Assembly (NCBI GenBank): GCA_040772005.1
Contig: JAXGYZ010000002.1
Span: 101,546 to 165,545 of the forward strand
Origin: Anaerolineae bacterium
GTDB lineage: Bacteria > Chloroflexota > Anaerolineae > CG2-30-64-16
DNA: 64,000 nt
Direction of reading: 5' to 3'
The position numbers were made by a program, and so were the translations under genes. The first letter of the stretch is position 1; each line of letters starts with the position of its first letter. Below the pieces are notes generated by a model. That model saw only the letters and a program-made list of their open reading frames with translations, ran no database searches and had not been told where the DNA came from. Positions 23,920-62,002 of the stretch are shown here, one piece after another.

Positions 23920-24058
23920 AAACCGATTCCAGAGTGAATGCCCCGGTCAGAACTGAGACAGGATTGACAGGATTGACGGGATTACTCTTGTAAATCCTGT
24001 CAATCCTGTCCAGAATCGCCGCTGGTTTTCACATTGGACTGAGTATAGGTGGCGCGGG
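23920..24058 (+). repeat. about 139-bp structured repeat element, copy A (family of three in this window)
   Basis: aaaccgattccagagtga...gtcagaactgag, then (GACAGGATT)x3 ... (AATCCTGTC)x3 forming a 27-bp-stem hairpin, then cagaatcgcc-CTCTGG-ttttcacattggactgagtatag. More than 90% identical to 60454-60592 and to the reverse complement of 61874-62002. Confidence 0.7.
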
Positions 24059-24084
24059 CTGTGTCATTCCGGTCGGCGCCGGGG

Positions 24085-25137
24085 CTATGCAGGCGCGCCC
24101 GCCTTCGCCGGCAACGGCTCGGCCGCACCGACTGACCCGGCTGGGGGCGCCGGCTCGATGACCGGGCGGGGGTACAGCCCCAACTGCTTGACGATTTCGG
24201 GTACGGCGGCCGGCCAGTTGACGGCCATGATGTGCAGCCCGGCCACGCCTTCGATGCCGCGCACCTGCTCGGCAACTTCCAGGCAGATGTCCATGCCGGC
24301 CTTCTGCTGATCTTCTTTCGACAGGCCGGCCATGCGCGCCACGATGGCGTCCGGCACATCCATGCCCGCGACTTCCGTCTTCATGTACTCCGCTACGCGC
24401 ACCGACTTCATCGGCCCGACGCCTGCCAGGATAGCAACCTTTTCGTGTAACCCCAGGTCCACCACGCGGCGCATGAACTCGCGGAAGCGATCCACGTTGT
24501 AGATGAGCTGCGTCTGGATGAACTGAGCGCCCGCAACAACCTTCTTCGCCAGGCGCATGGGCCGGTAGTCGTAGGGCGGCGCAAACGGATTCTCGACTGC
24601 ACCGATGAAGATGTCGGGCGCAAACTTGGGAATCTGCTTGTTGTTTTCGAACACCCGATTGTTGCGCATCATGCGCGCGATGCGAATCAGGTTGATCGAG
24701 TCGATGTCGTAGACCGGCTTGCACTGCGGGTGATCGCCCCAGATGGGATGGTCGCCGCTCAGGAACAGCATCGTGTTGATGCCGAACACCGAGGCGCCGA
24801 GGATGTCGCCCTGGATGCCCAGCCGGTTGCGGTCGCGGCAGGTGAACTGCACGACCGGCTCCATGCCCGCCTGCTTGAGCATGATGCTCACGGCCAGGCT
24901 GGAGACGTGCACCATCGCGGACTGGTTATCGGTGACGTTGTACGCATCGCCGTAGCCGCGCAGGGTCTTGATCTCGCGCTGGATGGCTTCGAGGTTGGGG
25001 CCGACGGGCGGCGAGACCTCGACGCAGACGGCGAAGTGGCCGGCCTTCAGCACCTTCGCCAGGTTGCTGCTTGCGCCGGTCAATCCGGTCTGGATCACCT
25101 CGGCGGGCGCCGGAATGGGAGGGGTCGGTGCGTTCAT
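24085..25137 (-). CDS. metF: 5,10-methylenetetrahydrofolate reductase MetF
   Basis: Start ATG 25137 (MNAPTPP). MTHFR TIM-barrel motifs (FAVCVEVSPP ... RDRNRLGIQGDILGA ... FLSGDHP). The tool's 465-aa ORF is a 5' over-extension into the metV frame region. Confidence 0.75.
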   Translation of the reverse strand: MNAPTPPIPAPAEVIQTGLTGASSNLAKVLKAGHFAVCVEVSPPVGPNLEAIQREIKTLRGYGDAYNVTDNQSAMVHVSSLAVSIMLKQAGMEPVVQFTCRDRNRLGIQGDILGASVFGINTMLFLSGDHPIWGDHPQCKPVYDIDSINLIRIARMMRNNRVFENNKQIPKFAPDIFIGAVENPFAPPYDYRPMRLAKKVVAGAQFIQTQLIYNVDRFREFMRRVVDLGLHEKVAILAGVGPMKSVRVAEYMKTEVAGMDVPDAIVARMAGLSKEDQQKAGMDICLEVAEQVRGIEGVAGLHIMAVNWPAAVPEIVKQLGLYPRPVIEPAPPAGSVGAAEPLPAKAGAPA

Positions 25138-25661
25138 CGTGATGCCTCCTGCCCACCCTGGCCGTTGCGCTTCAGTGACTCGGTGGCGTAGCGCATCTTC
25201 GTATCGCTGCCGGTCGTGACCTGGTCGCGCCCCAGCGCAAACGTCACCCACGACGCCTGGCCCTTGAGCCGCCAGTCCACCGGCGGATTCAGGCGGTAGA
25301 TTTCCTGCGCGTAGGGCGTCTTCGCCGCGCGGCGGACTGCTGCCACCCAGACGCACTCCATCTCCGGCTTGACCTCGCAGTTGCCGTTCAGCCGCACACC
25401 GCCGCACGGGCCGTTGCGCAGGTTCTTCGGGCAGTTCATGGGACAGGTCATGCCCGAATAGTGCAGGACGCACTGGGCGCAATCCTGGCAGTTGAACAGC
25501 GCGCCCTTGATCAGCTCCTCCGGCAGCTTGACGATGCGCGAGGAGCGCTCCATGCCGACGCGCTCAAACAGCGGCCGCATCAGCAGAAGCACCTTTTCGG
25601 TCAGTTTCCAGGCCCATACCAGCGGCATGGGCCGGTCCTGGATATAGCTGCGTAATGACAT
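25134..25661 (-). CDS. metV: MTHFR C-terminal-domain zinc-ribbon protein (MetV-like small subunit)
   Basis: Cys-rich pattern (CQDCAQCVLHYSGMTCPMNCPKNLRNGPCGG) of the MetV partner found beside metF in acetogen-type Wood-Ljungdahl clusters; ATGA overlap with metF. Confidence 0.65.
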   Translation of the reverse strand: MSLRSYIQDRPMPLVWAWKLTEKVLLLMRPLFERVGMERSSRIVKLPEELIKGALFNCQDCAQCVLHYSGMTCPMNCPKNLRNGPCGGVRLNGNCEVKPEMECVWVAAVRRAAKTPYAQEIYRLNPPVDWRLKGQASWVTFALGRDQVTTGSDTKMRYATESLKRNGQGGQEASR

Positions 25662-25716
25662 CTATGTGGCTCCTCGGCTCTTGGGGCTAGAATCGCCCGG
25701 CGCAGTCGTCCGGCGA

Positions 25717-26604
25717 TTACGCGTCAATGTCATGTTGTAGTTTGAACCCGCGGACCGTGTTCTGCAAGAGCATGGCAATGGTCATCGGGCCTACGCCGCC
25801 GGGCACGGGTGTAATTGCGCCCGCCACCTCGAGGGCCTCACTGTAGCAGACATCGCCGACGAGCCGGAACCCGCTCTTCTTGGAAGGGTCCTCGATGCGG
25901 TTGATGCCCACATCGATGACCGCCGCGCCGGGCTTGATCCAGTCGCCGCGCACGAATTCGGGCCGGCCGATCGCGGCCACGACGATATCCGCGCGGCGCA
26001 CGATGTCCGGCAGGTTCTTGGTGCGGCTGTGGCAGATGGTCACGGTCGCGTCTGCGTTGTTCAGCAGCGCCGCAACCGGGATGCCGACGATGTTGCTGCG
26101 GCCCACGACGACCGCATCCGCGCCCGCAATGGTGATGCCGGAGCGGATAAGCAGCTCAATGCAACCGGCGGGGGTGCAAGGGATAAACTGCGGCACGCGG
26201 CCCTTCATCACCAACTGGCCGATGTTCATGGGATGGAACCCATCCACATCTTTGTTCAGGCTGATGAGGTCCAGCACGCTCTGTTCATTCAGTCCCTTCG
26301 GCAGCGGCAACTGGACGAGGATGCCGTTGATGACCGGGTCCGCGTTGAGCGCGCGCACCAGTTCCTCGACTTCCTGTTGGGTCGCCGTCGCCGGCAGGCG
26401 ATGGGTGACGGAACCCAAGCCTGCGGCCTCACACGCCTTGCCCTTGGAGCTGACGTAGGTCTGCGAGGCCGGGTTGTCGCCCACCAGCACCGCAGCCAGC
26501 GTCGGAACCGTGCCATATTGCTGCCTCAGCACGGCGACTTCATCCGCAGCTTCCTGGCGAACGGCCTCCGCGATCGCCTTCCCGTCGATAATCTTGGCTG
26601 TCAT
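25717..26604 (-). CDS. folD: bifunctional methylene-THF dehydrogenase / methenyl-THF cyclohydrolase FolD
   Basis: MTAKIIDGKAIA ... SQTYVSSKGKACEAAGL ... GRSNIVGIPVAALL; 295 aa, canonical FolD. Confidence 0.8.
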   Translation of the reverse strand: MTAKIIDGKAIAEAVRQEAADEVAVLRQQYGTVPTLAAVLVGDNPASQTYVSSKGKACEAAGLGSVTHRLPATATQQEVEELVRALNADPVINGILVQLPLPKGLNEQSVLDLISLNKDVDGFHPMNIGQLVMKGRVPQFIPCTPAGCIELLIRSGITIAGADAVVVGRSNIVGIPVAALLNNADATVTICHSRTKNLPDIVRRADIVVAAIGRPEFVRGDWIKPGAAVIDVGINRIEDPSKKSGFRLVGDVCYSEALEVAGAITPVPGGVGPMTIAMLLQNTVRGFKLQHDIDA

Positions 26605-26621
26605 GCAAGCTCCTTCTTCTG

Positions 26622-27593
26622 TTACACGCGCAGATACGAATCCGCGTAGATGACCTTGTTCAACAAAATCTGGACGGTCTTCCAGATGGCAACCTGCTCG
26701 GGGTCGGAGAAGTCCACCTGGTCCTGCGACAGTTCTTCCTGCGCGGCCACGGCATCGTGCAGGGCCAGCAGCAGGCGGCCGATGGCCGTGCTGTCATCCC
26801 GCTCCTCGACGATGCGGATGAACTCGTTCTGTTTGGCGTCCAGCGGGTCCGCGATCATCGTATCCAGGCCCGCACCCATCAACATGACGCAGTACACGCG
26901 GTTGATGAGCGGGCGCATCTCGTTGGGCACGGCGTTCGATACATTGCTGAGCCCGACCTGCACATCTGCGCCCGTCACCTTCAGGATGCGGACCGCCTCG
27001 ATGCACTCCGGCACGTATTGCTGGCAGCCGCTCACAGTCAACACCAGGGGGTCGATAATCAGGTTCTCCAGCGGCATGCCCACTTCTTCCCAGCGCGGGA
27101 TGAGCTCCTCCAACGCGATGTTGACCCGCTCCTCCGCGCTCACCGGGATCCCTTCGCTGCGCATGGTCAGGGCAATCAGCTTGGTGTTGTACTTGGCCGC
27201 GACCAGCGGCACATTCGCCAGGCGCTCCGGTTCCGCGGAGGTGGAGTTGATGATCGGCTGCTGCTTGACGACCTCGCACGCAGCCTCGATGGCGGCCAGG
27301 TTCGTGGTGTCCAGGCACAGCGGCACGTCCACCGCCTCTTGCACGGTCTGCACCAGCCAGGGCAGCAGCCGGACGCCGTTCTTCTTCTGGGGCCCGATGT
27401 TCAGGTCCACGGCCCAGGCGCCCGCTTCAACCTGGCGCCGCGCCGAATCTTGAAAGAACGTGCGGGCACGGGTCAGCAGCTCTTCGCGTTCCGAGTCTGT
27501 TAGGTCTTCTTTGTTCCAAGCATCGACTGCGTACCCCACCGCTTCCTTGACTCTGGGGGACAGGATATGGATATTCTCGCCGATGATACGCAT
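26622..27593 (-). CDS. acsE: methyltetrahydrofolate:corrinoid iron-sulfur protein methyltransferase AcsE (pterin-binding MeTr)
   Basis: ATG 27593 with GGAGGAAG ribosome-binding site (MRIIGENIHILSPRV). Pterin-binding TIM-barrel motifs (LCLDTTN ... INSTSAE). Confidence 0.75.
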   Translation of the reverse strand: MRIIGENIHILSPRVKEAVGYAVDAWNKEDLTDSEREELLTRARTFFQDSARRQVEAGAWAVDLNIGPQKKNGVRLLPWLVQTVQEAVDVPLCLDTTNLAAIEAACEVVKQQPIINSTSAEPERLANVPLVAAKYNTKLIALTMRSEGIPVSAEERVNIALEELIPRWEEVGMPLENLIIDPLVLTVSGCQQYVPECIEAVRILKVTGADVQVGLSNVSNAVPNEMRPLINRVYCVMLMGAGLDTMIADPLDAKQNEFIRIVEERDDSTAIGRLLLALHDAVAAQEELSQDQVDFSDPEQVAIWKTVQILLNKVIYADSYLRV

Positions 27594-27619
27594 GAAACTT
27601 CCTCCTCGGTGGATGTTGA

Positions 27620-28405
27620 CTAGGTGTACTGTAGTGCTTCCTTGGCTTCCTTGCGCACGACATACGCGCGGTCCCACGCAAAATGCTCATCTTCGCCCAA
27701 CAGATGGCGGCAAGTCTCAGCCAGGGCGCCGTACTCATCCTGGGTCAGGTGGCCGTATTTTGCGAGCTTGCCGAGGCTGCGGATAGCCTTCGCTCGAATT
27801 GCGGGGCTGGCATCCGCCAGGTTCGCCTGAAGCTGCTCGACGACGCTCTGGCGCAGCCCGGCGGGGAGCTGGCCGGCCGGGATGGACTCGACGAACTTGC
27901 CCAGCGCACGGGTCGCGCTGTCGCGCAGCTCGACCTCGGGCGAGGCTGCGGCTTCCAGGGCCACGGGCACCGCGTCGATGATCTTCGGGGATTTGACCTT
28001 GCCGAGCGCGTAGAGGATGAACGCGCGGCAGGCTGCCTCCGGGCACGTCTGGTGGTACTCCGCGACCAGCGGCGCAATGGCATCTGCTCCCATCCGCCCC
28101 AACACCTGTGCCACGGCCATCTGCGCTTTCACGTCGCCGGCTTCAAGGTTCTGAATCAAGGTCGGGATGGCCCACTTCCCGAAGCTGCCGATGAGCGCGA
28201 TGGCGTTCTCCAGCGCCGGAACGAGGTCGGGCCGGTCCAGTGGGTCGATATAGAACAGCGCGGAGACCATCTCGAGAAACCGGCTGCCTTCTTCCTCGGT
28301 CATGCGGTGCATGTGCGCCCGGATGGTCTCCAGTCCGCGCTCGACATCGTCGGCGTCGGCGCTGGCGAGCAGGTTGCCGATTGAGCGGTAGAGGTCCTCT
28401 TGCAT
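27620..28405 (-). CDS. HEAT-repeat (PBS-lyase-like) protein
   Basis: Repeated HEAT-like AxxALGxxG helices (VAQVLGRMGADAIAPL ... RAFILYALGKV ... AIRSLGKL). Start chosen at ATG 28405, which has an AAGGAGG ribosome-binding site. Confidence 0.5.
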   Translation of the reverse strand: MQEDLYRSIGNLLASADADDVERGLETIRAHMHRMTEEEGSRFLEMVSALFYIDPLDRPDLVPALENAIALIGSFGKWAIPTLIQNLEAGDVKAQMAVAQVLGRMGADAIAPLVAEYHQTCPEAACRAFILYALGKVKSPKIIDAVPVALEAAASPEVELRDSATRALGKFVESIPAGQLPAGLRQSVVEQLQANLADASPAIRAKAIRSLGKLAKYGHLTQDEYGALAETCRHLLGEDEHFAWDRAYVVRKEAKEALQYT

Positions 28406-28535
28406 GGCGTCCTCCTTGAGGATCAGGTTCATCTCACGCAAAGGCGCAAAGTGCGCCAAGAAACATTTGGATCCGACATGGCTTTGCGGACTTTGCGTCT
28501 CGGCGTGAGCCTCTCCACAGGCATTCAGTTGCAGG

Positions 28536-29567
28536 TCAGTAGCTCACGCGCAGGACTTTGGCGCCCCGAATCCGGCGTGCCTTGAGTTCCACCAGGGCCT
28601 GGTTGGCTGTCTCCAGCTCGTACTCCTGCACTTCCGGCAATATCGGCGTCTCGGCGGCCAGCGCCAGGAACTCGCTTACGTCCTGGCGTGTCACATTGGC
28701 AACGCTCTTGATTTCCCGCTCCAGCCACAGATGGGCCGGATAGTCGAGCCGCAGCAGCGCGTCACGGTCACGGTCTTCCTTGCGAATCGCGTTGATGACC
28801 AGCCGGCCGCCTGGCGCCAGGTTGCGCAGCGCTGCGACGACCGGTGTCCAGGCGGGCGTCGTGTCGATGATGGCGTCCAGCGGGACCGGGCTGGTGGCGT
28901 CAGTGTGGCCTGCCCAGGCCGCCCCCAGCTCCCGCGCGAAGGCCTGCTCTGTCTCCGTGCGCGAGAAAACGTACACCGGCATGTGCGGGTAGCGGTGGCG
29001 CACCATCTTCAACACCAGGTGCGCGGAGGCGCCGAACCCCGTCAGCCCGAGTGCCTGTCCATCGTGCAGCCCGGTCAGCCGCATGGAGCGGTAGCCGATG
29101 GCCCCGGCACAGAGCAGCGGTGCAGCCTGTGCATCGGTGAACACCTCCGGGATGCGGTAGGCAAACGCCTCCGGCACAACCATATACTCCGCATACCCGC
29201 CGTGTGCATCGCGGCCCGTCGCACGGAACTGCGGACACAGGTTCTCCTGCCCGCTGAGACACCAGGGGCACGCGCCGCACGCCGAGTAAATCCACGCGAC
29301 GCCGACCCGCTCGCCCAGGTTGAATGCGCTTGCGTCTGCACCGCGTGCCGCCACGCGGCCGACGACTTGATGGCCCAACACGATGGGCAACTGTGGCGGC
29401 GGCGTGCGGCCCTCGATTTCATCCAGCTCCGTATGACACACGCCGCAGGCGGTCACGCGGAGCAGAATCTCCCCTTCGCCCGGTTCCGGCACGGGCAGGT
29501 CCACGCGCTGCAACGGCTCCGGGTTGTCCGCGAGCTGCGTGATGGCGGGAAGGATCATCGCGCGCAT
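28536..29567 (-). CDS. zinc-dependent alcohol dehydrogenase family oxidoreductase
   Basis: Catalytic-Zn motif GVCHTELDEIEG, structural-Zn cysteines (CGACPWC ... C) and a Rossmann GxGxxG (GLTGFGASAHL). Confidence 0.7.
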   Translation of the reverse strand: MRAMILPAITQLADNPEPLQRVDLPVPEPGEGEILLRVTACGVCHTELDEIEGRTPPPQLPIVLGHQVVGRVAARGADASAFNLGERVGVAWIYSACGACPWCLSGQENLCPQFRATGRDAHGGYAEYMVVPEAFAYRIPEVFTDAQAAPLLCAGAIGYRSMRLTGLHDGQALGLTGFGASAHLVLKMVRHRYPHMPVYVFSRTETEQAFARELGAAWAGHTDATSPVPLDAIIDTTPAWTPVVAALRNLAPGGRLVINAIRKEDRDRDALLRLDYPAHLWLEREIKSVANVTRQDVSEFLALAAETPILPEVQEYELETANQALVELKARRIRGAKVLRVSY

Positions 29568-29587
29568 GGGGTGGTTCAGCCCTTGGC

Positions 29588-30915: not shown

Positions 30916-30994
30916 GCGATTCCTCCTACTGGCAAGCGCTGAAGGGGGCGACGGGGTATCCAACCCCTGATATTCTACCATCCTTTGCCCTTCT

Positions 30995-33022: not shown

Positions 33023-33025
33023 GAC

Positions 33026-33118
33026 GATTTCGATTGAAGATTGAAGATTGAAGATTACCGATTGAAGCATTTGTTCGAAAGCCGCAAATCTTCAGTCCGC
33101 AATCTTCAATCTGTAATC
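33026..33118. repeat. palindrome of tandem GATTGAA heptamers
   Basis: gatttcgattgaagattgaagattgaagattaccgattgaag / gattacagattgaagattgcggactgaagattt (reverse complement of the right arm). Lies between the RACo start and the nfnB stop. Confidence 0.55.
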
Positions 33119-33123
33119 CAACG

Positions 33124-34602: not shown

Positions 34603-34603
34603 C

Positions 34604-36380: not shown

Positions 36381-36447
36381 GGCCACCGAGTTGCGTAGCA
36401 ACCCGGTGGCCACAACCTTCAACCTGTAACCTTTAGACCTGCAAACG
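36381..36447. repeat. 8-bp-stem hairpin plus a solo arm of the GGTTRCA heptamer palindrome family
   Basis: ggccaccg-agttgcgtagcaacc-cggtggcc followed by aaccttcaacctgtaacctttagacctgcaaacg, which resembles the right arms at 12131-12172 and 53041-53079. Confidence 0.4.
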
Positions 36448-41035: not shown

Positions 41036-41079
41036 GAGTGTAGTATAAAAGCTACAGATTGTAAAGTCGCGACGATCAA

Positions 41080-41139
41080 CCGCGGAAGACACGGAGCACA
41101 CAGAATGATAATTTTCCGCGTGCTCCGTGTCTTCCGCGG
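41080..41139. terminator. 20-bp perfect palindrome with an AT-rich loop 3' of acsB (terminator candidate; related to 53980-54049)
   Basis: ccgcggaagacacggagcac, a 20-nt loop (acagaatgataattttccgc), then gtgctccgtgtcttccgcgg. The right arm and loop resemble the palindrome at 53980-54049 (ttccgcgtg.tccg.gt; gatgat.ttt). Confidence 0.5.
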
Positions 41140-41148
41140 TTCACATCG

Positions 41149-43437: not shown

Positions 43438-43463
43438 GGTTAGTTCCTCCGTGAACCGGAATG

Positions 43464-43550
43464 AGAGACGAGTAACGAGTAACGAGTAAGGAGAAATGAG
43501 TAAGCGTCACTTCTTACTCGTTACTCATTACTCGTTACTGATTTCTCATC
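43464..43550. repeat. long palindrome of tandem GAGTAAC heptamers between acsB and cooS
   Basis: gagagacgagtaacgagtaacgagtaaggagaaatgagtaag, loop cgtcac, then ttcttactcgttactcattactcgttactgatttctcatc. The right arm reaches the cooS stop codon. Confidence 0.6.
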
Positions 43551-45540
43551 ACCCGTAAATCTCTGCCATCTGCTCTTCGACCGGCAGTTCGCTGTATGAC
43601 TCCATCGCCGCATCCCCGGATGCGCCAAAGCGGGCCGGATCGTAGGCAGGCAGCTTCAGCGCCGCGCGCTTCTTGTCGATGTGCTCGAGTGTCTTCTGGA
43701 CGATGTCTCCGGCCTCGATAACGAACTCCAGCTTGCCGCCGTAGCGGTCTTCCCACTCACTTAACAGGATGTCGGAAACCGCATCGGAGAACTCAACCGG
43801 GTTGCGCACGCCCATGATGACGTACGCGCCAGAGCCGACACAGTAAGTGGCGATGGATAAAGCTTTCTCGCTCATCCATTCGGGTGCCAGGCCGACCGCC
43901 GGGATATCGCTGATGTCGTCGCCCAGGCCGCCCTCGGTCGCCATCTGGCTCAACACAGTGAGGATGCGGCTGTTATCCACGCAGGAACCGAGGTGCAGGA
44001 CCGGCGGGATGCCGATCGCTTCGCAGACCTCGCGCAGGCCGGGGCCGACCTTTTCCGGATCGAGGCCCGCAGAGCCCTTCATATAGCCATACTTGCCGGC
44101 TGCAATCGCGCCGCACCCCGTGCTCACCACCAGAACATCATTCTTCAGCAGTTCGGTGACCACATCCATGTGGACCTGGTCGTGGGTGAAGGCGGGGTTG
44201 TTGCAACCGACATTCGCCGCCACGCCGCGGATGCGCCCGCTGGCGATGGCGTCGTTGAGCGGCCGGAAGGAGGCCCGATAGTTGCCGCCCTGCATGTAGG
44301 CCAGATACTCATGGCTGAAGCCCGGCACCATTTGTTCGGACATGCCATGGGGGATGTGCGTCTCGGCGGCCCGGTTGGCATAGTTGTCGATTGCGCGGCG
44401 CACGATATTCTTGGCGATGTCCATCGCGTGATGCTCGTCGAACTCGATGTGTGTGGCGCCGGTAATCTTGACTTTGGGGCTGGTGGTGATGATTTCGGTG
44501 TGGAAGTGCTCGGCAACGCCCACCAGGGATTGCATGATGCACTGCACATCCACCACCATTGCCTCGACCGCGCCGGTCAGGATGGCGAGTTCCTGCGTCA
44601 GGAAGTTGCCGGCGGAAGGAATGCCCTGGCGCATCATGACCTCATTGGCCGTGCAGCAGATGCCCGCCAGGTTGATGCCGTCCGCGCCCTTGCTCTTGGC
44701 ATACTCGATCAGATCGGGGTCCTGAACGGCCGTGACGATCATCTCAGAGAGCGTGGGTTCGTGGCCGTGGACGATGATGTTGACCTGCTTCTCTTCCAGG
44801 CAGCCGAGATTGACTCCGCCAACCTTCGGGCTGGGGGTGCCGAAGAGGATGTCGGAGATGTCGGTGGCCCACATCGAGCCGCCCCAGCCGTCGGATAGGG
44901 CCGTGCGCACAGCGGCGCTCAAGATGTGGCTGGCATCCTGGTCGTCGCCAATGTGCGTGCGATGCAAGATCTCCACCACTTCGCGGTCGATGCCCCGCGG
45001 CACCACACCCTGGTCGCGCCAGAGCTTCTGGCGCTTGGGCGGTGCGGTATTGATGTAACTGAGCGTCCCGCGCTGTTGCCCGAATTCGCTGATGGCTTTG
45101 TTGGCCACGTCCAGCGCGACCTCTATGACAGTCTTGCCTTTCGTGGGGATGCCATGTTTGGCCGCGACGGCATACAGCTTGGCCTCATCGCGAATCTGGT
45201 AACCCTGGGCCTCGCCGGTCGCCACTGCATGGAGGGTAAACGCCAGGTCACGGCCATGGTCGGAGTGAGCCGCCGCGCCAGCCGCAATCGCCCGCGCCAG
45301 ATTGCGGGCCGCGATGGTTTCCAGCGTCGCACCGCAGATGCCGACTTGCCCTTCTTTGGTGATGCGGCAGGGCCCCATATAGCAATTTTTGCAGCAGACG
45401 CCCGATTGCCCGCTGCCCACGGTGCAGGGCTTATGGTCTGCCGCCCGGCTAAATGAGGTCGAGATGCCCATCAGTTCGGCAACGTCCAGCACGTAGCATG
45501 CGGCTGGATCGATGCTGGGCGTGATTTTCTGTTTTGCCAT
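43549..45540 (-). CDS. cooS: anaerobic carbon-monoxide dehydrogenase catalytic subunit CooS/AcsA (Ni-Fe C-cluster)
   Basis: Start ATG 45540 with GAGGAG ribosome-binding site (MAKQKITPSIDPA). D/B-cluster N-terminal cysteines (CTVGSGQSGVCCKNCYMGPCRI), C-cluster ligands (HGHEP; GICCTANE; GCNNP; HLGSCVDN); 663 aa. Confidence 0.8.
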   Translation of the reverse strand: MAKQKITPSIDPAACYVLDVAELMGISTSFSRAADHKPCTVGSGQSGVCCKNCYMGPCRITKEGQVGICGATLETIAARNLARAIAAGAAAHSDHGRDLAFTLHAVATGEAQGYQIRDEAKLYAVAAKHGIPTKGKTVIEVALDVANKAISEFGQQRGTLSYINTAPPKRQKLWRDQGVVPRGIDREVVEILHRTHIGDDQDASHILSAAVRTALSDGWGGSMWATDISDILFGTPSPKVGGVNLGCLEEKQVNIIVHGHEPTLSEMIVTAVQDPDLIEYAKSKGADGINLAGICCTANEVMMRQGIPSAGNFLTQELAILTGAVEAMVVDVQCIMQSLVGVAEHFHTEIITTSPKVKITGATHIEFDEHHAMDIAKNIVRRAIDNYANRAAETHIPHGMSEQMVPGFSHEYLAYMQGGNYRASFRPLNDAIASGRIRGVAANVGCNNPAFTHDQVHMDVVTELLKNDVLVVSTGCGAIAAGKYGYMKGSAGLDPEKVGPGLREVCEAIGIPPVLHLGSCVDNSRILTVLSQMATEGGLGDDISDIPAVGLAPEWMSEKALSIATYCVGSGAYVIMGVRNPVEFSDAVSDILLSEWEDRYGGKLEFVIEAGDIVQKTLEHIDKKRAALKLPAYDPARFGASGDAAMESYSELPVEEQMAEIYG

Positions 45541-50977: not shown

Positions 50978-51024
50978 ACGACGGTCCTTCACCGGAGGAT
51001 GTGTCCTGCTCTCCGGACACCGGG

Positions 51025-51165: not shown

Positions 51166-51264
51166 GTTTCTGCCCAGGTGAAGATTCGCTCCCGCCGAAA
51201 TCCCTTTTGACGATGACCGTTAACGGCGGTACAATTCACCTGCGAAACGAACAGGAGGTGAAGC

Positions 51265-52971
51265 ATGAGAAAAGGTCTGCCATTCGTTGCTTTGCTGGTT
51301 CTGGTCAGCCTGGTCATGTCCGCGTGTATGCCGTTGGCGCCGGTGCCGACGCCGGTGGCTGCCGAACCGACGCCGGTCGCGGAGCCGACCGTAGCTGCGG
51401 AGCCGACCATCGCGGCGGAGCCGGCGCCAGCGGCGGAACCCACCGCAGCCGCCGAACCTGCCGCGCCGGAACCTGAGGCGCCTGTGGACGCGGCCAAGAC
51501 GCTGCGCCTGCCGGATCTCGGCGGCCAGGCCGTGCGGGCGGTGACGGAGAATGCGTATCCGCCGTTGAACTTTGTGGACCCGGTGACGGGGGAAGCGGTG
51601 GGGTGGGAATACGAGGCGGTGAACGAGATCTGCCGGCGGCTGAACTGTGCGGTGGCGTGGAGCACGGTGTCGTGGGACGCCATGATCCAGGCGGTGCAGG
51701 ACGGGCAGTTCGACGTGGGGATGGACGGCATCACGATCACGGCGGAGCGGGCGACGCAGGTGGCCTTCTCGGCGCCGTACCTGGTGTCGCAGCAGTACAT
51801 GCTGGTGCGGGCGGACGAGACGCGCTTCACGGATGCGGCGACGTTTGCGGCGGACGAGGGGCTGCTGATCGGGTCGCAGGCGGGGACGACGAACTTCTAC
51901 GTGGCCGTGTACGAGGTGCTGGACGGGGACGAGCAGAACCCGCGCATCAAGCTGTTCGAGACGTTCGGGGCGGCGGTGCAGGCGCTCTTGGCGGGGGATG
52001 TGGACCTGGTGCTGATGGATGCGGCGTCGTCGCGCGGCTACATCGGGGCCAACCCGGACCGGCTCAAGCTCGTCGGTGAGCCGCTCGGCACGGAGGAGTT
52101 CGGCTTCATCTTCACCCCCGGTTCCGCGTTGGTGGAACCCTTCAATGCGGCCCTCGCGCAGATGCGCGCAGACGGCTATCTCGACTACCTGAACAACAAA
52201 TGGTTCTTCCTGACCGACCCGAACGCCCAGGACCAGTATGACCAGTTGCCCGACTTGCAGGGTCAGCCGGTGCGGGCGGTGACGGAGAATGCGTATCCGC
52301 CGTTGAACTTTGTGGACCCGGTGACGGGGGAAGCGGTGGGGTGGGAATACGAGGCGGTGAACGAGATCTGCCGGCGGCTGAACTGTGCGGTGGCGTGGAG
52401 CACGGTGTCGTGGGACGCCATGATCCAGGCGGTGCAGGACGGGCAGTTCGACGTGGGGATGGACGGCATCACGATCACGGCGGAGCGGGCGACGCAGGTG
52501 GCCTTCTCGACGCCGTACCTGGTGTCGCAGCAGTACATGCTGGTGCGGGCGGACGAGACGCGCTTCACGGATGCGGCGACGTTTGCGGCGGACGAGGGGC
52601 TGCTGATCGGGTCGCAGGCGGGGACGACGAACTTCTACGTGGCCGTGTACGAGGTGCTGGACGGGGACGAGCAGAACCCGCGCATCAAGCTGTTCGAGAC
52701 GTTCGGGGCGGCGGTGCAGGCGCTCTTGGCGGGGGATGTGGACCTGGTGCTGATGGATGCGGCGTCGTCGCGCGGCTACATCGGGGCCAACCCGGACCGG
52801 CTCAAGCTCGTCGGTGAGCCGCTCGGCACGGAGGAGTTCGGCTTCATCTTCACCCCGAACTCGCCCCTGGTCGAGCCTTTCAACGCGGCCTTGGCGACGA
52901 TGAAGGCCGATGGGTTCATCGACCACCTGAACACGCGCTGGTTCTTCATGTACGATCCGGCCGCGGAATAG
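51265..52971 (+). CDS. polar-amino-acid ABC transporter substrate-binding lipoprotein with an internal tandem duplication giving two type-3 SBP domains
   Basis: Lipobox (LVMSAC) and an (AEPTxA)n low-complexity linker. Two consecutive roughly 246-aa SBP_bac_3 domains whose core nucleotide sequences (51532-52118 and 52270-52856) are identical except for one substitution (Ala/Thr in FSxPYLV). Confidence 0.7.
51532..52856 (+). repeat. 738-bp-period direct tandem duplication inside the SBP gene (587-bp cores more than 99.8% identical)
   Basis: 51532-52118 matches 52270-52856 base for base apart from one substitution; the flanking roughly 150 bp of each copy are clearly diverged. Confidence 0.8.
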
Positions 52972-53079
52972 GTTGCAAGTTGGCGGGTTGCAGGTTGCAG
53001 GTTACGGGCCGCAGGACCTTGCACGATTCTGTGCTCTCATCCTGTAACTTGCAACTTGCAACGTCAGAACTTGTAACGG
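52971..53079. repeat. palindrome of tandem GGTTGCA/GGTTACA heptamers between the SBP and permease genes
   Basis: ggttgcaagttggcgggttgcaggttgcaggttacggg ... cctgtaacttgcaacttgcaacgtcagaacttgtaacgg (the arms are reverse complements with a few mismatches). Confidence 0.55.
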
Positions 53080-53080
53080 T

Positions 53081-53956: not shown

Positions 53957-53979
53957 GAGCTAGCGCGGGCGGCAAATAC

Positions 53980-54049
53980 AACCACGCAATACGCGGACCA
54001 CGCGGAAAGATGATTTTTGTCTTCCGCGTGGTCCGCGTATTGCGTGGTT
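53980..54049. terminator. 28-bp perfect palindrome with an AT-rich loop between convergent genes (bidirectional terminator candidate)
   Basis: aaccacgcaatacgcggaccacgcggaa, loop agatgatttttgtc, then ttccgcgtggtccgcgtattgcgtggtt (exact reverse complement). Confidence 0.55.
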
Positions 54050-54053
54050 ATGC

Positions 54054-55868: not shown

Positions 55869-56018
55869 CGGTATTGGCTCCGCCCGAAGTCCCATCTTAC
55901 CATATCTGGCCGCGCGTATTCAAAGAAATCGGTGACGGCTATTAAAGACCAGACCGCCGTGACAAGCATGTGTTGTCACGGCGGTCCCGAAGCAGTGCTA
56001 CAGCGCGACCGACCGTCA

Positions 56019-56642
56019 CTAGCGCAGCAAGCCGACCTCGTCCAGGGGCCAATAGCGCACCAGCGCGCGCCCGATGATCTGATCCAGCGACACCGGGCCG
56101 AACGTGCGCGAGTCCCGGCTGGCCGACCGGTTGTCGCCCATCACGAACACGGTCAGCGGCGGCACGACCCATGAACGGCCCCCGCCGAGCGTATCCTGGT
56201 CGAGGTACGGCTCGTCGAGCGGCACGCCGTCGATGAACACGCGGCCATCTGCGACAGTCACGCGCTCACCGGGGAGGCCCACGACGCGTTTAATAAGCAG
56301 CTCCGGGCTGCCGCCAGGGTCATGGAGCACCACGACATCCCCGCGCCGCGGCCCGTGGAAGTGATAGGACAGCTTCTCGATGACGAGCCGCTCGTTCGTG
56401 TGCAGGTTGGGCTCCATGCTCTGGCCGTAGACGCGTGTGGCCTGGGCCAGGAATACATGGATGAGCAGCGCAATGATGATAGCGGGCACGATTGTGCCCA
56501 TCACATCGCGCAGCATCGCTTTGAACCAGCCGTCGCCTGCCGGGCGGGCCGGCCCAGGGGCCGGTCCGTCCACGACAGGGGCAGTGGTCGTCGCCGCCTC
56601 CGGAGCGTTGGGCTCCGGCGCTTGAGACGTCGCTTGATCCAT
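56019..56642 (-). CDS. lepB: signal peptidase I (LepB)
   Basis: Catalytic Ser box (IPSGSMEPNL-like: GQSMEPNL), Lys box (RGDVVV) and the C-terminal GDNRSASRDSR motif. Confidence 0.7.
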   Translation of the reverse strand: MDQATSQAPEPNAPEAATTTAPVVDGPAPGPARPAGDGWFKAMLRDVMGTIVPAIIIALLIHVFLAQATRVYGQSMEPNLHTNERLVIEKLSYHFHGPRRGDVVVLHDPGGSPELLIKRVVGLPGERVTVADGRVFIDGVPLDEPYLDQDTLGGGRSWVVPPLTVFVMGDNRSASRDSRTFGPVSLDQIIGRALVRYWPLDEVGLLR

Positions 56643-56665
56643 TGCCTTTTCCCGAAAGTCAGGTT

Positions 56666-58900
56666 TTACCGCCGCGGTCTGCCGCGATCCCCGCTCCGGT
56701 CGTTGAACCGGCTGCCGCCGCGGTCGCCGCCGCTGCGTGGGCCGCGATCGCCGCTCGGCCGGCCGCCGCTGGAGCCGCGGTCACGCTCGCGCGCTTCTTC
56801 GACGCTCCAGCCTTCCATGACTGCCTGGCGGCTCAACCGGATCTTGCCGGACGGATCGATGTCCGTCACCATCACCGTGATTTCGTCGCCCAACTGCACG
56901 ACTTCCTCGACGCTCGGCACGCGGTAGTCGGCCAACTGGGAGATGTGCACCATACCGTCCTGGCCGGGCGCGATCTCGACGAACGCGCCGTAGGACTCGA
57001 TGCGCACGACCTTGCCCGTGTAGATGCGGCCGAGCTTGATTTCCTCGGTCATCTTCTCGATCTCGGTCAGGGCCTGCTCGGCACCGATGCCCTCGGCACC
57101 GGAGACGAACACGGAGCCGTCATCCTCGATGTCGATCTTGACGCCGTACTGCTCCTGCAGGCTGCGAATCATTTTGCCGCCGGGGCCGATGACCTTGCCG
57201 ATCTTCTCCGGATCGATGTGGGTCGTCAGGATGCGCGGGGCATGGACGGACAGGCTGCGGCGCGCCTCAGGCAGCACGGCCAGCATCTTGTCCAGGATGA
57301 ACAGGCGGCCCTGGAGCGCCTGGGCCAGCGCCTCTTCGAGAATCTGGAAGGTCAGGCCGTGGATCTTGATGTCCATCTGCAGCGCGGTAATGCCGTGCGC
57401 CGTGCCCGCCACCTTGAAGTCCATGTCGCCGAGGTGGTCCTCGATGCCCTGGATGTCGCTCAGGATGGCGTAGCGCAGGCTTGCGCTGGTTACGTCACCA
57501 TCCGTCACAAGGCCCATCGCGATGCCGGCGACCGGCGCCTTGATCGGCACGCCCGCATCCATGAGCGCCAGCGTGCTGCCGCAGACGGAGGCCATCGAGG
57601 TCGAGCCGTTGGAGGACAGCGCCTCAGACACGAGCCGCAGCGTGTACGGGAAGGATTCCTGCGCCGGGATCATCGGTTCGAGCGCGCGTTCGGCCAGCGC
57701 GCCGTGGCCGATTTCGCGGCGCCGCGGGCCGCGGTTGGGCGCCACTTCGCCCGTCGAGAAGGGCGGGAAGTTGTAGTGGTGCATGTAGCGCTTGGATTCT
57801 TCGGGGCTGAGCGTGTCCAGCGATTGCGCATCGCCCGGCGTGCCGAGCGTCGCCACGGTCAGGACCTGGGTTTCGCCGCGGGTGAACAGGCCGCTGCCAT
57901 GCACGCGCGGGAGGACCCCCACCTCGACCGTGATGGGCCGGATTTCCGTGTATGCGCGCTCGTCCGGGCGCACCTTGTCGCCGAGGATGCGGTCGCGCAC
58001 GACCTTCTTCTCGATGCTGTCGAACGCCGATGCCAGTGCCTTCGGGTCGTAGGTCTCGCCCAGCGCGGCGACCAGTTCGGTGTGCAGCGCCTTCATCGCG
58101 GCGGACTGCGCCTGCTTGGCGAGCGGCTGCGAGAAGATGTCGCGCATGCGGCTGCCGATCCAGGTCGAGACCGCTTCCTCGACGACCGGGTCGCTGGCGA
58201 ACGCGGTGTACTCGAACTTGGGCTTGCCGATTTCGGCGCGCATGCGGTTCTGCAGCTCGATGATCGGCTGCATGGCCTCATGGCCCAGCCGCAGCGCCTC
58301 GAGCATCATGTCCTCGGGCAGCTCGTCTGCGCCCGCTTCGACCATCAGGATGGCATCGGCGGTGCCGGCCATGCGCAGGTCGAGCGTGCTCGCGGCCATC
58401 TGCGGGACGGTCGGGTTGATGATGAACTCGCCATCCACAAAGCCTACGCGCACTGCGCCGATGGGCCCGTCCCACGGGATATCGGAGATGGTGACCGCGG
58501 CGCTGGCCGCGATGATGCCGAGGATGTCCAGGTGGAGCTCAGGATCGCGGGCCATCGCGGTGACGATGACCTGCACCTCATTGCGCATGTCCTTCGGGAA
58601 GAGCGGGCGCAACGGACGGTCGATCAGCCGGGAAACCAGGATGGCCTGGTCGCTGGGGCGGCCTTCGCGGCGCATGAAGCTGCCAGGGATGCGGCCCGCG
58701 GCGTAGAGGCGTTCCTCGAAGTCCACGCTGAGCGGGAAGAAGTCGATGCCCTCGCGGGGCGCTGCACCACACACCGTGCCCAGCACGAGCGAGTCGCCGG
58801 AGCGCACCGTGACGGCGCCCCCGGCCAGCTTCGCCAGGCTGCCGCTCTCGATGATAATCTCGCGGCCGCCGACGGTGACGCTGTAAGAATGTTTCTGCAT
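56666..58900 (-). CDS. pnp: polyribonucleotide nucleotidyltransferase (PNPase), with a C-terminal Arg/Gly-rich tail
   Basis: Two RNase PH domains, KH and S1 domains (canonical motifs FPPFSTGE; [11 protein letters not shown]). C-terminal [24 protein letters not shown] tail. Confidence 0.9.
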
Positions 58901-59149
58901 GTTAACCCTTTACCTCTCTGTGATATTGTGCCGGAGAGGTTCAGGGACTGGGGAGTGCTGTCGAAGTCGTTGCTGCGGAGCTTACGCGCTACGCGCCGGC
59001 GTGTAAGCTCCGCAGGAGCGACGCCCTCGACCCCACTCCCCAATTCCTGCGCCTCTCAACGGCGGTGCCCTCACTTTGTTCGAGTCTATGCGCTGTAGCT
59101 TCGCTACAGCCTGTAGAACCAGAGCTCAGTTAAGGCTTGACACTAAATG

Positions 59150-59186
59150 CCAAACGAGTAGATACGACAGATCGTATCTACTCGTC
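59150..59186 (-). terminator. rpsO terminator / pnp-leader attenuator hairpin
   Basis: cgagtagatacga-cagat-cgtatctactcg (12-13-bp stem) followed on the minus strand by UUUGGCAUUU. The pnp leader also contains the hairpin ctgtagc-ttcg-ctacag at 59094-59110 and a long imperfect inverted repeat at 58950-59045. Confidence 0.5.
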
Positions 59187-59231
59187 CATAGTACGGCTTA
59201 CGATGTGCGCTTATGCGATGCAATCTGAGCG

Positions 59232-59501
59232 TTATTTCCGCAAGCCCAGCCGCACAATCAGTTCCTTGTAGCGATCGGGGTCCTTTGCGCTGAGGTACGC
59301 CAGATGGCGGCGGCGCTGGCCGACCAGCTTGAGCAAGCCGCGGCGAGAAGATTGATCCTGCTTGTGCGTCTTCAGATGATCAATCAGCGAGTTGATGCGA
59401 GTCGTGAGAATCGCAACCTGCACCTCAGGCGACCCCGTATCACTGTCGTGTACGTGGTATTCCTGAATGATGGCATCCTTTTCGTTCTTCGACAGAGCCA
59501 T
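59232..59501 (-). CDS. rpsO: 30S ribosomal protein S15
   Basis: [15 protein letters not shown] ... [17 protein letters not shown] ... [29 protein letters not shown]; 89 aa from ATG 59501. Confidence 0.85.
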
Positions 59502-59642
59502 GGAACACACTCCTTAATGGATGTGACCGAGACACCGCTGGAATACCGAGGCGCATGTCCCAGTCGGGCATTACGGGTTGGAGTATATCACGGGAGACGG
59601 AATGGAGCAAGTTAGGGCTGCGCTTCTGCCGCAGGGCCGGTT

Positions 59643-60452
59643 TCAGAGCCGGGCATAGCGGTCGAAGCCGCCCTCGCTGGCAATGGTCTGGCCGGTAATC
59701 CAGCGCGCGTGGTCGCTGTGGAGGAACTGTACGAGCCGCGCCGCGTCATCCGGCAGCCCCCAGCGGCCGGCGGGGAACAGCCGTGTGACCTCGTCGTAGA
59801 CCGGGCCGGTCAGGTAGCCGGTGTCCGTGGGCCCCGGATTAATACAGTTCACCCGGATCTGCCGGGGCGCCAGCGCCGCGGCGGCCTGGCTGCACAACCC
59901 CCGGATGGCTTCCTTCGACACGGCATACGCAATCTCCGAGATCATCGGCCCGAGATACTGCCCGCTGGTGAACAGGGTGATGGCCCCGCCCGCCGCGGCG
60001 ATCTGCCCGGCAAAGGCCTGGATCATCAGCATGGCCGCGCGCACGTTGACAGCCAGGTGCGCATCGATGTGTTCGGCGGTCCAATCACCCAGCGGCGCAT
60101 GGGTGGAATAGGCGTGGTTGAGCACCAGGCCGTCCAGGCTGCCCAACCGGGCAGCGGCTTCGGCCACCACCCGCGCGGGTGCGTCGGGCTGTGCCAGGTC
60201 GGAAGGCGTCAGTGCGACGACCGTCAGCCCCGCCGCCGCCAGCTCCGCAACGAAGTCGTGCGTCCAGTCCTGTGCCGCATCGGGGTACTGCAATGCGGCA
60301 TCGTAGTCTGCATGGCCGTGGACCGCAACCGCTGCCCCGGCCGCTGCGCAGCGCCGGGCGATGGCCGCACCGATGCCCAGCGACCGGCTCACACCGGTGA
60401 CGAGGATGTGCCGGCCCTGCAACGACAGGGAAGTATTCGTATCGTGTTCCAC
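59643..60452 (-). CDS. short-chain dehydrogenase/reductase (SDR) family oxidoreductase
   Basis: TGVSRSLGIGAAIA (TGxxxGIG cofactor motif) and the Ser-Tyr-Lys catalytic triad region (YAVSKEA). Confidence 0.7.
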   Translation of the reverse strand: MEHDTNTSLSLQGRHILVTGVSRSLGIGAAIARRCAAAGAAVAVHGHADYDAALQYPDAAQDWTHDFVAELAAAGLTVVALTPSDLAQPDAPARVVAEAAARLGSLDGLVLNHAYSTHAPLGDWTAEHIDAHLAVNVRAAMLMIQAFAGQIAAAGGAITLFTSGQYLGPMISEIAYAVSKEAIRGLCSQAAAALAPRQIRVNCINPGPTDTGYLTGPVYDEVTRLFPAGRWGLPDDAARLVQFLHSDHARWITGQTIASEGGFDRYARL

Positions 60453-60453
60453 T

Positions 60454-60592
60454 AAACCGACTCCAGAGTGAGTACCGCAGTCAGAACTGAGACAGGATTA
60501 ACAGGATTGACGGGATTACTCCTGTAAATCCTGTCAATCCTGTCCAGAATCGCCTCTGGTTTTCACATTGGACTGAGTATAGAACGTTGCCA
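60454..60592 (+). repeat. about 139-bp structured repeat element, copy B (direct orientation), 15 nt 3' of the rlmD-like gene
   Basis: More than 90% identical to 23920-24058, including the (GACAGGATT)3/(AATCCTGTC)3 hairpin and the CCAGAG ... CTCTGG-TTTT outer stem. Confidence 0.7.
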
Positions 60593-60606
60593 TTCTTAAA
60601 CGATTT

Positions 60607-61860
60607 CTAGACCCGTTCGATTTTGACGACGCACTCGACGTGAAATGTCTGCGGGAACAGGTCCACCGGCTGCACCTCGACGATGCGATAGCCGGCCGCG
60701 TGCAGATGCTCGACATCGCGGGCCAGGCTGGCCGGGTCACACGAGATGTAGACCATGCGCCGCGGGCCGAGCGCAGCGAGGTCGCGCAGCACCGCCGGCC
60801 CGGCCCCCGCGCGCGGCGGGTCCAGGATCACCAGGTCGGCGCGCTGCCCCCCGGCCAGCAGTGCGGGCAGCACCTCTTCGACCGCGCCCTCGTGGAGGCT
60901 GGCGTTGAGCAGCTTACCTGCATTGAAGGCGAAATCCTCGCATGCGGAGGGAGATCCCTCGATGCCGATGACCTCTGCCACTTGCCCGGCCAGCGCCAGC
61001 GCAAACAGGCCCGCGCCGCAGTATGCATCCAGCAGGATGTCGCCCGGCTGCGGGTCCGCGTAGGCGGTCACGATATCTACGAGCGCGGCCGCCGCGGCCG
61101 TGTTGACCTGGAAGAAGCTCTCCGCGGAGACGCGATAGTGCCGCCCGTTGACTTCTTCCGTGATGAACGGCTCGCCAATCAGCGGGCGCAGGCCGGCCGG
61201 CGTCTTGAGCGCGCAGGCCGCGGGCAGGTCCAGCTCCAGTTCCAGCGCCTCATCGCCCGCAGTCTCGAACAGGATCAGCGCATCGCCGGTGTTCAGCCCC
61301 GCGCGCAGGCTCACGCCCGTCAGTGCGGGTTCAGCCAGGTCGAGCGCCGCGTGCAGCTCGTCCAGCCGGTCTGCCAGGAGCAGGCAGCGGTCCACCGCGA
61401 TGAGGTCGTGCGAGGCCGTGCGGCGGAAGCTCAACCGGCCCTCTGCATCCAGCGCGAACTGCGCATGGTTACGGTAGCCGTAGTCGAGGAAACGACTCTC
61501 GTCGGCAGGGTCGGCCATCACTACGATGTCCGCCACCGGCGGGTCGGCGAGGCGACCCAGGCGGCGGAGCTGGTCGGTGACGATGGCCTGCTTGAGCTCG
61601 GCCTGGCGCTCGTACCGGATGTGCTGCCACTGGCAGCCGCCACACTGGCCGGGGCCGAAATAGGGGCAGGGCGGCTCGATGCGGTCGGGGCTGGCCGCCA
61701 GCACTTCGACCAGGCGGCCGCGCGCCCAACGCTCCTTCTCCTCGACGACCTCGACGCGCACGCGCTCGCCGGGGACAGTGTAGGGGACAAACACGGCCTT
61801 GCCCTGGTGGCGGCCGATGCCTTCGCCGCCGTGCGCCATCGCGTCAATCAAAATGTCCAC
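60607..61860 (-). CDS. rlmD: TRAM-domain RNA (uracil-5)-methyltransferase, RlmD/RumA family
   Basis: N-terminal TRAM domain, a 4Fe-4S cysteine cluster (CPYFGPGQCGGCQWQH) and a SAM-MTase core (LLDAYCGAGLFAL ... ILDPPRAG) with the catalytic Cys near the C-terminus (VYISCDP). Confidence 0.7.
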   Translation of the reverse strand: MDILIDAMAHGGEGIGRHQGKAVFVPYTVPGERVRVEVVEEKERWARGRLVEVLAASPDRIEPPCPYFGPGQCGGCQWQHIRYERQAELKQAIVTDQLRRLGRLADPPVADIVVMADPADESRFLDYGYRNHAQFALDAEGRLSFRRTASHDLIAVDRCLLLADRLDELHAALDLAEPALTGVSLRAGLNTGDALILFETAGDEALELELDLPAACALKTPAGLRPLIGEPFITEEVNGRHYRVSAESFFQVNTAAAAALVDIVTAYADPQPGDILLDAYCGAGLFALALAGQVAEVIGIEGSPSACEDFAFNAGKLLNASLHEGAVEEVLPALLAGGQRADLVILDPPRAGAGPAVLRDLAALGPRRMVYISCDPASLARDVEHLHAAGYRIVEVQPVDLFPQTFHVECVVKIERV

Positions 61861-61873
61861 GTTATTGGGCCCT

Positions 61874-62002
61874 CTATACTCAGTCCAATGTGAAAACCAG
61901 AGACGATTCTGGACAGGATTGACAGGATTTACAGGAGTAATCCCGTCAATCCTGTCAATCCTGTCTCAGTTCTGACCGCGGTACTCACTCTGGAATCGGT
62001 TT
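61874..62002 (-). repeat. about 139-bp structured repeat element, copy C (inverted orientation), 14 nt 5' of the rlmD-like gene
   Basis: The reverse complement matches copies A and B. Together with copy B it brackets the rlmD-like gene as an inverted pair. Confidence 0.7.

Follow-up and report, generated by a model that had tools for sequence, protein, structure and literature searches.

A dispersed hairpin repeat, probably of the bacterial MITE kind, with filled and empty sites in Anaerolineae

Introduction

[quoted passage not shown] The closest described systems to the repeat considered here are the ERIC/IRU (RU-1) elements of enterobacteria, the Correia/NEMIS elements of Neisseria, RUP of Streptococcus pneumoniae, YPAL/RU-2 of Yersinia and the REP/BIME palindromes with RAYT transposases. 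Correia/NEMIS elements can donate expression signals and undergo RNase III processing, and the loops of REP/BIME units are targeted by insertion sequence (IS) elements. Chloroflexi are never mentioned in a 2024 review of prokaryotic MITEs. Here we analyse a repeat of about 130 bp, referred to below as the element, that is present in three copies (A, B and C) in a 64,000-nucleotide stretch of DNA from an Anaerolineae bacterium (Chloroflexota; GenBank assembly GCA_040772005.1, contig JAXGYZ010000002.1, positions 101,546 to 165,545 of the forward strand). This stretch is called the window, and coordinates are counted from its first letter. As a family the repeat is new, while its kind (MITE, ERIC, Correia, RUP) is already known; because it combines dispersed copies, filled and empty sites and AT-richness, we consider it probable that it represents a small, non-coding, non-autonomous mobile repeat family of the bacterial MITE kind in Anaerolineae.

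Results

An AT-rich palindromic repeat in three copies

Copies A (23919-24048, plus strand), B (60453-60582, plus strand) and C (61874-62003, minus strand) lie at the three places given in a preliminary description made from the sequence alone, and their pairwise identity of 93.7-96.9% in the three-copy alignment bears out the more than 90% claimed there; the shared unit is 129-130 bp rather than 139 bp, and is too short for a gene. These pairs also came out of a repeat search of the window, one as 134 nt at 94% and one as 130 nt at 97%. The core 18-mer and the two 20-nt ends each match the window at these three places only, with none expected in dinucleotide shuffles. The element has a GC content of 46-47%, as against 65% in the window, and is bounded, with its flanking TA, by the termini TA-AACCGATTCCAGAGTGA ... 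TCACATTGGACTGAGTA-TA; its ends form a terminal inverted repeat, CTAAACCGATTCCAGAGTGA and the reverse complement CTATACTCAGTCCAATGTGA matching at 13 of 20 positions. The core hairpin, found at 23957-24010 in copy A, at 60491-60544 in copy B and at 61912-61965 in copy C, comprises three direct 9-mers, GACAGGATT, G/AACAGGATT and GACGGGATT, followed in the loop region by one degenerate reverse-complement unit, ACTCYTGTA, and then by two perfect AATCCTGTC units. Three tandem units and their three reverse complements, forming a 27-bp stem, had been proposed; the direct 9-mers stand, but with one inverted unit degenerate the stem consists of 18 perfect and 6 further base pairs closed by a 4-nt loop.

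Filled and empty alleles among close relatives

Relatives' loci (L numbers) were found via homologues of the TRAM methyltransferase and MetF and via exact look-up of ribosomal protein S15, which gave comparisons at graded distances. The gene order PPDK_N - TRAM methyltransferase - short-chain dehydrogenase (SDR) - S15 is kept, with or without the element, in all relatives, whose protein identity ranges from 99% to 83%. In L122-127, L250-252 and L255-257 the flanking genes match those of the window at 96.3-98% nucleotide identity, and the alignments stop precisely at the edges of copies B and C. Site B is empty in all of these loci and also in L128, L130 and L131, the L122-type strains having a 47-nt spacer without the element. 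At site C the L122-type strains (98% nucleotide identity) carry an unrelated 45-nt hairpin, no repeat of which was found in the window, while L129 and L131 have spacers of 14-25 nt, L253 a 184-nt insert of yet another kind, and L130 a different repeat that is found too at window positions 16738-16820. Site A is empty in all relatives recovered for it, namely L142 (95% nucleotide identity), L134-138 (about 91-92%) and L139-141, where there is a plain terminator made of AGCCCGCGC, a 6-9 nt loop, GCGCGGGCT and TTTT. No copy of the element was detected in about 130 kb of relatives' DNA (L122-L142), and the possibility that the relatives' spacers are decayed remnants of it was rejected by local alignment against shuffles (p = 0.16-1.0). 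Conversely, sites B and C are both filled in L249 (GCA_040770385.1, JAXGJG010000066.1). This assembly runs colinear with the window for 9.8 kb at 97.7% identity, and its two elements match copy B at 99.2% and copy C at 97.7%. These alignments indicate that the element is a genuine insertion/deletion polymorphism within a species.

An artefact of assembly, such as a collapsed or duplicated contig end, had been raised as something that could undo the observation. As a source of the repeats it is refuted, and its probability is negligible: the window copies differ from one another at 4-8 positions, each lies within unique DNA colinear with relatives, and the independent assembly L249 holds the same two insertions, so that collapsed or duplicated contig ends are excluded. 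Inverted copies tightly bracketing a single gene had likewise suggested cassette geometry, that is, a composite transposon whose ends, B and C, imported the rlmD-like TRAM methyltransferase gene. This is refuted as an origin and we find it barely credible, as the gene stands at the same place between the same neighbours in all element-free relatives and is 98.0% identical in nucleotides to its orthologue, the same divergence as its neighbours. Because gene order is kept without the elements and the gene is as diverged as those around it, B and C are, on this comparison, two separate insertions beside a resident gene. An integron attC identity was also dropped, on account of ill-fitting ends and of genes that are syntenic and of housekeeping type.

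Two further observations concern these loci. The gene calls of L249 are broken into many short open reading frames (ORFs), as if a strain closely akin to the one that the window comes from had been assembled, presumably from long reads, with many frameshifts. The spacer between PPDK_N and the TRAM methyltransferase differs in its insert among at least four lineages (the window, the L122 group, L130 and L253); the repeat shared by window positions 16738-16820 and L130 5886-5971 belongs to a second, GC-rich hairpin family, the two copies being 87% identical.

Copies in a second genome

A scan of a genome collection with the core 18-mer (AATCCTGTCAATCCTGTC) returned at least 119 loci, and among the matches listed the whole element occurs at two loci only, both in the Anaerolineae metagenome-assembled genome (MAG) R69_164 (DAOUGK01). 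These copies (L072 and L106) are 93-97.5% identical to the window copies and have unrelated flanks, and the five distinct copies show no clustering by genome. Copies in unrelated contexts of another genome, together with empty sites at all three window positions, the test that the preliminary description had itself put forward, uphold its suggestion of a MITE-like family. In metagenome contigs the family-specific 20-mer GTCAATCCTGTCCAGAATCG gave two matches, both by chance and without the element; the right end of the element had no match in viral contigs, a distant blastn search of plasmids gave just a weak partial match to the core in a Spirosoma plasmid, and exact-protein look-ups of the window TRAM methyltransferase and MetF returned no record.

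In R69_164, the L072 copy lies near the centre of a 287-bp segment (L072 7556-7842) that has 18-nt inverted repeats, CAGGGTCATTCAGTTCTC, at its edges and CCGCGCC on both flanks, and the whole segment is absent from a 93%-identical relative, L258. To judge from its layout, the segment looks like one repeat inserted into another.

Landing sites and junctions

Copy A lies within the loop of the metF terminator hairpin. The empty allele of site B contains a small dyad, GAAAC(C)G...CGTTTC (L122), and that of site C a palindrome, GAGAAACC.GGTTTCTC (L253; duplicated in L122), and the insertion points at B and C fall in the loop or at the centre of the dyad. TA is found on both sides of copies A, B and L072, L106 has TA/TG, and copy C has AA/TA. 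The arrangement C-TA[AACCG...CTGAGTA]TA-G is full in three of the five copies, copy A reading TA-AACCG...CTGAGTA-TA-G, and the remaining two depart from it at a single junction. At sites A and C the G next to the right TA is shared by relatives and is therefore part of the flank. The tetranucleotide CTAG occurs 15 times in the window against 208 expected from base composition, a 14-fold depletion. CTAA and TTAG are likewise depleted in the window, 4- to 7-fold. IS630 is described as preferring TA within CTAG (Tenzen & Ohtsubo 1991). Insertion into TA with duplication of it is described for the IS630 family, and in vitro for ISY100, which now and then leaves junctions with just an A on one side or with AA/TT (PMC2170065); such aberrant junctions would make room for copy C. 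On the basis of the TA and C-TA...TA-G flanks, and with CTAG otherwise so scarce, a transposase of the IS630/Tc1-mariner type is a tentative candidate for the mover, to which we give rather less than an even chance. An insertion of IS200/IS605 type 3' of a fixed target was dropped because the junctions are not seamless.

Several observations weigh against a transposase-driven, MITE-like element. Five distinct copies are known, plus the two of L249 at sites B and C, and searches of the window, plasmids, viral contigs and metagenome contigs found no transposase or full-length IS with matching ends. Among the aligned copies there are no compensatory changes, and so no sign of selection on the RNA fold. 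Copy C is without the left TA. At site B the empty allele is AAACCG-CCG-TAGAG, at site C it is AAACCG-GGGTTC-TAGAGG, and filled alleles have AAACCG-[ACTCC/ATTCC...GAGTA]-TAGA, so that empty B and C alleles already hold both the AAACCG of the element's left end and the right TAG, 3-6 nt being replaced and not duplicated. The loops of site A resemble the ends of the element, TACCGA in L142 being close to its left end and CTGAG..GT in L135 to its right end. For target-site duplications, which the preliminary description had listed among the comparisons to be made, the picture is mixed: TA flanks copies A and B on both sides, but copy C has AA/TA, and the empty alleles of B and C appear to be in conflict with simple TA duplication, not being reducible to a single TA. 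AAACCG is not over-represented in the window (18 seen against about 21 expected), and its presence at both empty junctions is therefore unlikely to be due to chance. Judged from these three sites, the junction pattern could reflect similarity-guided target choice, copying into stalled hairpins through microhomology, or imprecise loss of the element with some terminal bases left in place.

The second of these possibilities amounts to spread without a transposase: replication would stall at a hairpin, and the polymerase would switch template by microhomology to a copy of the element and back, or, as a variant, strains would exchange alleles through homologous recombination. Wherever the empty allele is informative, the site is a hairpin or palindrome, the six AAACCG nucleotides common to the empty alleles and the element's left end fall exactly at the B and C junctions, site A shows a TA..CCGA match, TAG(A) is common on the right side at B and C, the replacement rather than duplication of target nucleotides is as template switching would have it, and site C has received three different unrelated hairpin inserts in three lineages. 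The symmetric C-TA...TA-G termini are, however, what a TA-duplicating transposon is expected to leave; the inverted repeat at the ends includes the AAAC/GTAT bases, which argues for AAACCG being part of the element; and the pattern comes from three sites only. We know of no precedent for template switching yielding a family dispersed over two genomes, and consider this route improbable. The MITE-like reading remains the one that we prefer.

Folding and transcription signals

A folding check called for by the preliminary description came out clearly, as in the minimum free energy (MFE) fold almost the whole length of the element is paired (forward -62.6 kcal/mol, reverse -55.3 kcal/mol, z about -7.6), and the consensus fold of the five copies has 50 pairs. 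The outer CCAGAG/CTCTGG stem, which had been described as clamping the hairpin, is an alternative pairing only and lies outside the MFE fold. Copy C had further been read, in its own orientation, as a strong intrinsic terminator. Consensus scans of 59500-62300 and 23400-24400, which required a loop of 3-8 nt and counted stem pairs up to 20, found no terminator-like site in or beside any copy, and the tail UUUUCACA holds four U only, predicted to be paired within the outer stem. The same kind of scan around copies A, B and C found no promoter-like site in or beside them, and a reading of the core as tandem TTGACA -35 boxes was dropped on that ground. The whole window gave no Rfam match at the gathering score.

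Gene context and local consequences

By Pfam, every gene neighbouring the three copies is on the minus strand, and the best protein matches for the window genes are named Chloroflexi or Anaerolineae. Reading along that strand, a PPDK_N-like gene (62005-63990, stop TGA at 62007-62005) is followed by copy C, which is in sense orientation; by the rlmD-like TRAM/U5 RNA methyltransferase gene (60607-61860, start at 61860, stop at 60607); by copy B, antisense to transcription; and by the SDR gene (59643-60452), whose GTG start codon (60452-60450) copy B adjoins. Copy A, antisense to the surrounding minus-strand transcription unit, comes next to the MetV/MetF gene, which ends at 24085, and is followed by a peroxiredoxin gene. 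The gene context given in the preliminary description was borne out, with co-directional genes, the metF/peroxiredoxin setting of copy A, copy C 12-14 nt upstream of the methyltransferase start and copy B, in the bounds used here, 24 nt past the methyltransferase stop.

At site A, copy A splits the arms of the metF terminator, AGCCCGCGCC (23909-23918) and GGCGCGGGCT (24051-24060), which pair with each other around it in a 201-nt fold where the host stem closes over the whole copy (-90.8 kcal/mol). We infer that copy A has lengthened the metF terminator hairpin while keeping its stem and short T-run. At site B the ancestral SDR spacer with AGGGAG/CAGGGG is gone from the window, and the sole Shine-Dalgarno-like sequence left is a GGAG within copy B (60461-60464, minus strand), 8 nt upstream of the GTG. 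It results from a T-to-C change at 60461 (GGAA to GGAG) present in copy B alone among the five aligned copies; the orthologous site-B copy of L249 likewise reads GACTCC. We infer from this that the end of copy B is a putative ribosome-binding site of the downstream SDR gene. Copy C leaves the GAGGG of the TRAM gene intact.

Such effects, together with a very stable fold in both orientations and positions always between co-directional genes, right after stop or before start codons, lend some appeal to the idea that the repeat is a functional RNA or regulatory module, an intercistronic hairpin for termination, attenuation, mRNA protection or processing of the sort proposed for REP/BIME and SPRITE; copy A extends a terminator stem, copy B supplies GGAG for the next gene, and unrelated long hairpins occupy other spacers of the window. 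Conspecific strains nevertheless do without the element at the same sites, both orientations occur, no canonical terminator or promoter, Rfam match or covariation among copies was found, and dispersal would be left unexplained. We regard it as quite improbable that this is what the element primarily is, although as a secondary effect it would be compatible with a mobile element.

The peroxiredoxin gene next to copy A has an in-frame TGA at the catalytic position (23502-23504, minus strand; …DFTFV-TGA-PTEL…). All relatives likewise have the gene called as two AhpC-TSA fragments, which fits selenocysteine rather than a pseudogene.

A hairpin core with matches in many phyla

The remaining 117 of the at least 119 loci matched by the core 18-mer come from many phyla (Chloroflexota, Acidobacteriota (Blastocatellia), Verrucomicrobiota, Planctomycetota, Bacteroidota and several others) and contain arrays of NNCAGGAT(T/G) units, often forming long hairpins. 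In roughly a third to a half of the listed loci the 9-mer pair makes up the base of a long hairpin; 13 of the loci among the matches listed belong to one MAG labelled Heliobacteriaceae (CAZLYK01). The frequency of the 18-mer alone means nothing, as control 18-mers had 31, 10 and 52 matches in viral contigs and the real one 13; only the hairpin arrangement is distinctive. An inverted double unit within 200 nt was present at 41 of the 119 loci listed and at none of 93 loci for three composition-matched control tandem 9-mers, in a comparison that crosses collections (bacterial genome loci against viral-contig controls) and in which the real motif in viral contigs scored 3 of 13. The GACAGGATT-GACAGGATT base of the 35 clearest hairpins is constant by selection, while the interior and the outer flanks vary yet stay complementary, several such copies being found in CAZLYK01 and in Blastocatellia. 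Genes around the cross-phylum hairpins are convergent in 22 cases, co-directional in 29 and divergent in 9, a tally too crude to use. Literature searches on the 9-mer or 18-mer returned primer matches only, and found no paper on an intergenic hairpin class with tandem-unit arms. The element may be one mobilised member of a wide, apparently undescribed class of intergenic hairpins with tandem NNCAGGATT arms.

Tandem 9-mers also invite an explanation by protein binding, with the units acting as iteron- or Fur-box-like sites (F-F-F-x-R-R-R) in a dispersed binding module. One 9-mer is indeed present in three direct and two to three inverted copies, and pairs of it recur in the hairpin arrangement across many phyla. 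A 9-bp period would, however, place the sites on different faces of the helix, no candidate protein is known, the other hairpins of the window use unrelated units (GAGTAAC, GATTGAA, CAACCTG), and viral contigs contain composition-matched control 18-mers as often as the real one; we consider this explanation very improbable. Two more specific candidates were dropped, namely CsrA-type CAGGAUG sites, whose motifs are buried in the stem and whose matches include phyla and an archaeon without an expected CsrA, and Pho-box-like CTGTCA repeats, the period being 9 bp and not 11.

Other repeats were noted in the window. AT-rich intergenic hairpins or arrays with tandem short-unit arms lie at 43444-43552, 33029-33121, 5407-5453, 12129-12163, 36412-36446 and 52975-53078; their units (GAGTAAC; GATTGAA; CAACCTG/GTTGCAG) bear no sequence relation to the 130-bp element, and the array at 43444-43552 fills the gap from the stop of a minus-strand gene to the Shine-Dalgarno sequence and start of the next. 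The intergenic positions 13205-13357 show a third similarity of repeat type, at 76% over some 150 nt, to L128 2188-2331, which is the SDR-S15 spacer of a 92% relative. GC-rich intergenic hairpins with perfect or near-perfect 28-nt arms (AACCACGC…/AACCGCGG…) are found at 53980-54049 and 41078-41141. Finally, one long ORF (51265-52971) contains a 300-nt direct repeat (51523-51822 and 52261-52560; 99% identical, at a distance of 738 nt), as an internal duplication of about 246 codons.

Discussion

In the mechanism that we favour for this MITE-like family, a transposase acting in trans would move the element. Copies have been added to short spacers in minus-strand gene arrays, at or near the centres of pre-existing dyads, whether a terminator loop, small palindromes or another palindromic insert. 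Once in place, the element would be co-transcribed whichever way round it lies, giving a hairpin of -55 to -63 kcal/mol. Within a hairpin loop it would only lengthen the hairpin, so that such sites would be tolerated, and the hairpin may alter mRNA processing or stability; at site B, the end of the element would have been co-opted as the SDR ribosome-binding site. A more far-reaching proposal, that identity with the element's own left end, AAACCG, guided its insertion into hairpin loops in place of ordinary TA-duplicating transposition, or that it is the local mobilised representative of the wider intergenic hairpin class, strikes us as rather unlikely. Only the pattern at the junctions and the hairpin core found across phyla might nonetheless lead beyond the ordinary; a wider hairpin class, if real, would imply a shared mechanism that generates or recognises hairpins.

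The element adds what is probably a recently mobile MITE-like family to Anaerolineae, a rarely cultured class. It would also provide natural examples of a terminator loop serving as a safe landing site, of an element end turned into the ribosome-binding site of a housekeeping gene, and of lineage-specific hairpins in the spacer at site C. Repeats of this sort break short-read assemblies and are usable as strain markers.

How the element stands to the known systems differs from case to case. REP/BIME units with RAYT are, like it, intergenic palindromes with proposed roles in mRNA stability or termination. REPs are characterised in one account as 20-40 bp long and GC-rich, with a GTAG or CGTC tag and hundreds of copies (PMC3733652); an identity with REP/BIME was rejected, the element being 130 bp long and AT-rich, with no GTAG or CGTC tag at either end. 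YPAL/RU-2 of Yersinia resembles it in being recently mobile and in having targets that span or adjoin dyad symmetry (PMC2229807), but is 168 bp long and not AT-rich, lacks terminal TA and makes duplications of 3-26 bp. RUP of Streptococcus pneumoniae, at ~107 bp, has a TA target and tends to land in other repeats (PMC2229807), and its mobilisation in trans by an IS630-family transposase (IS630-Spn1) has been proposed; the ends of RUP match a known IS, whereas for the element no parent IS was found in the window or among plasmids, viral contigs and metagenome contigs, and two junctions depart from simple TA duplication. Correia/NEMIS elements of Neisseria share with it a size of 107-155 bp, inverted ends, TA termini, closeness to genes and co-transcribed hairpins (PMC2229807); they have well-defined terminal repeats of 24-26 bp and an IHF site, in contrast to the element, which is a palindrome as a whole and in which none of these motifs and no promoter-like site was found. 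With ERIC/IRU (RU-1) there is no sequence similarity, the host of the element belongs to Chloroflexota and its centre is made of tandem 9-mers, but the likeness is otherwise broad: ERIC is 127 bp in size and a long imperfect palindrome, is intergenic and transcribed, lies within or next to operons in either orientation, has TA termini, and occurs at sites that are filled in some strains and empty in others (PMC2229807).

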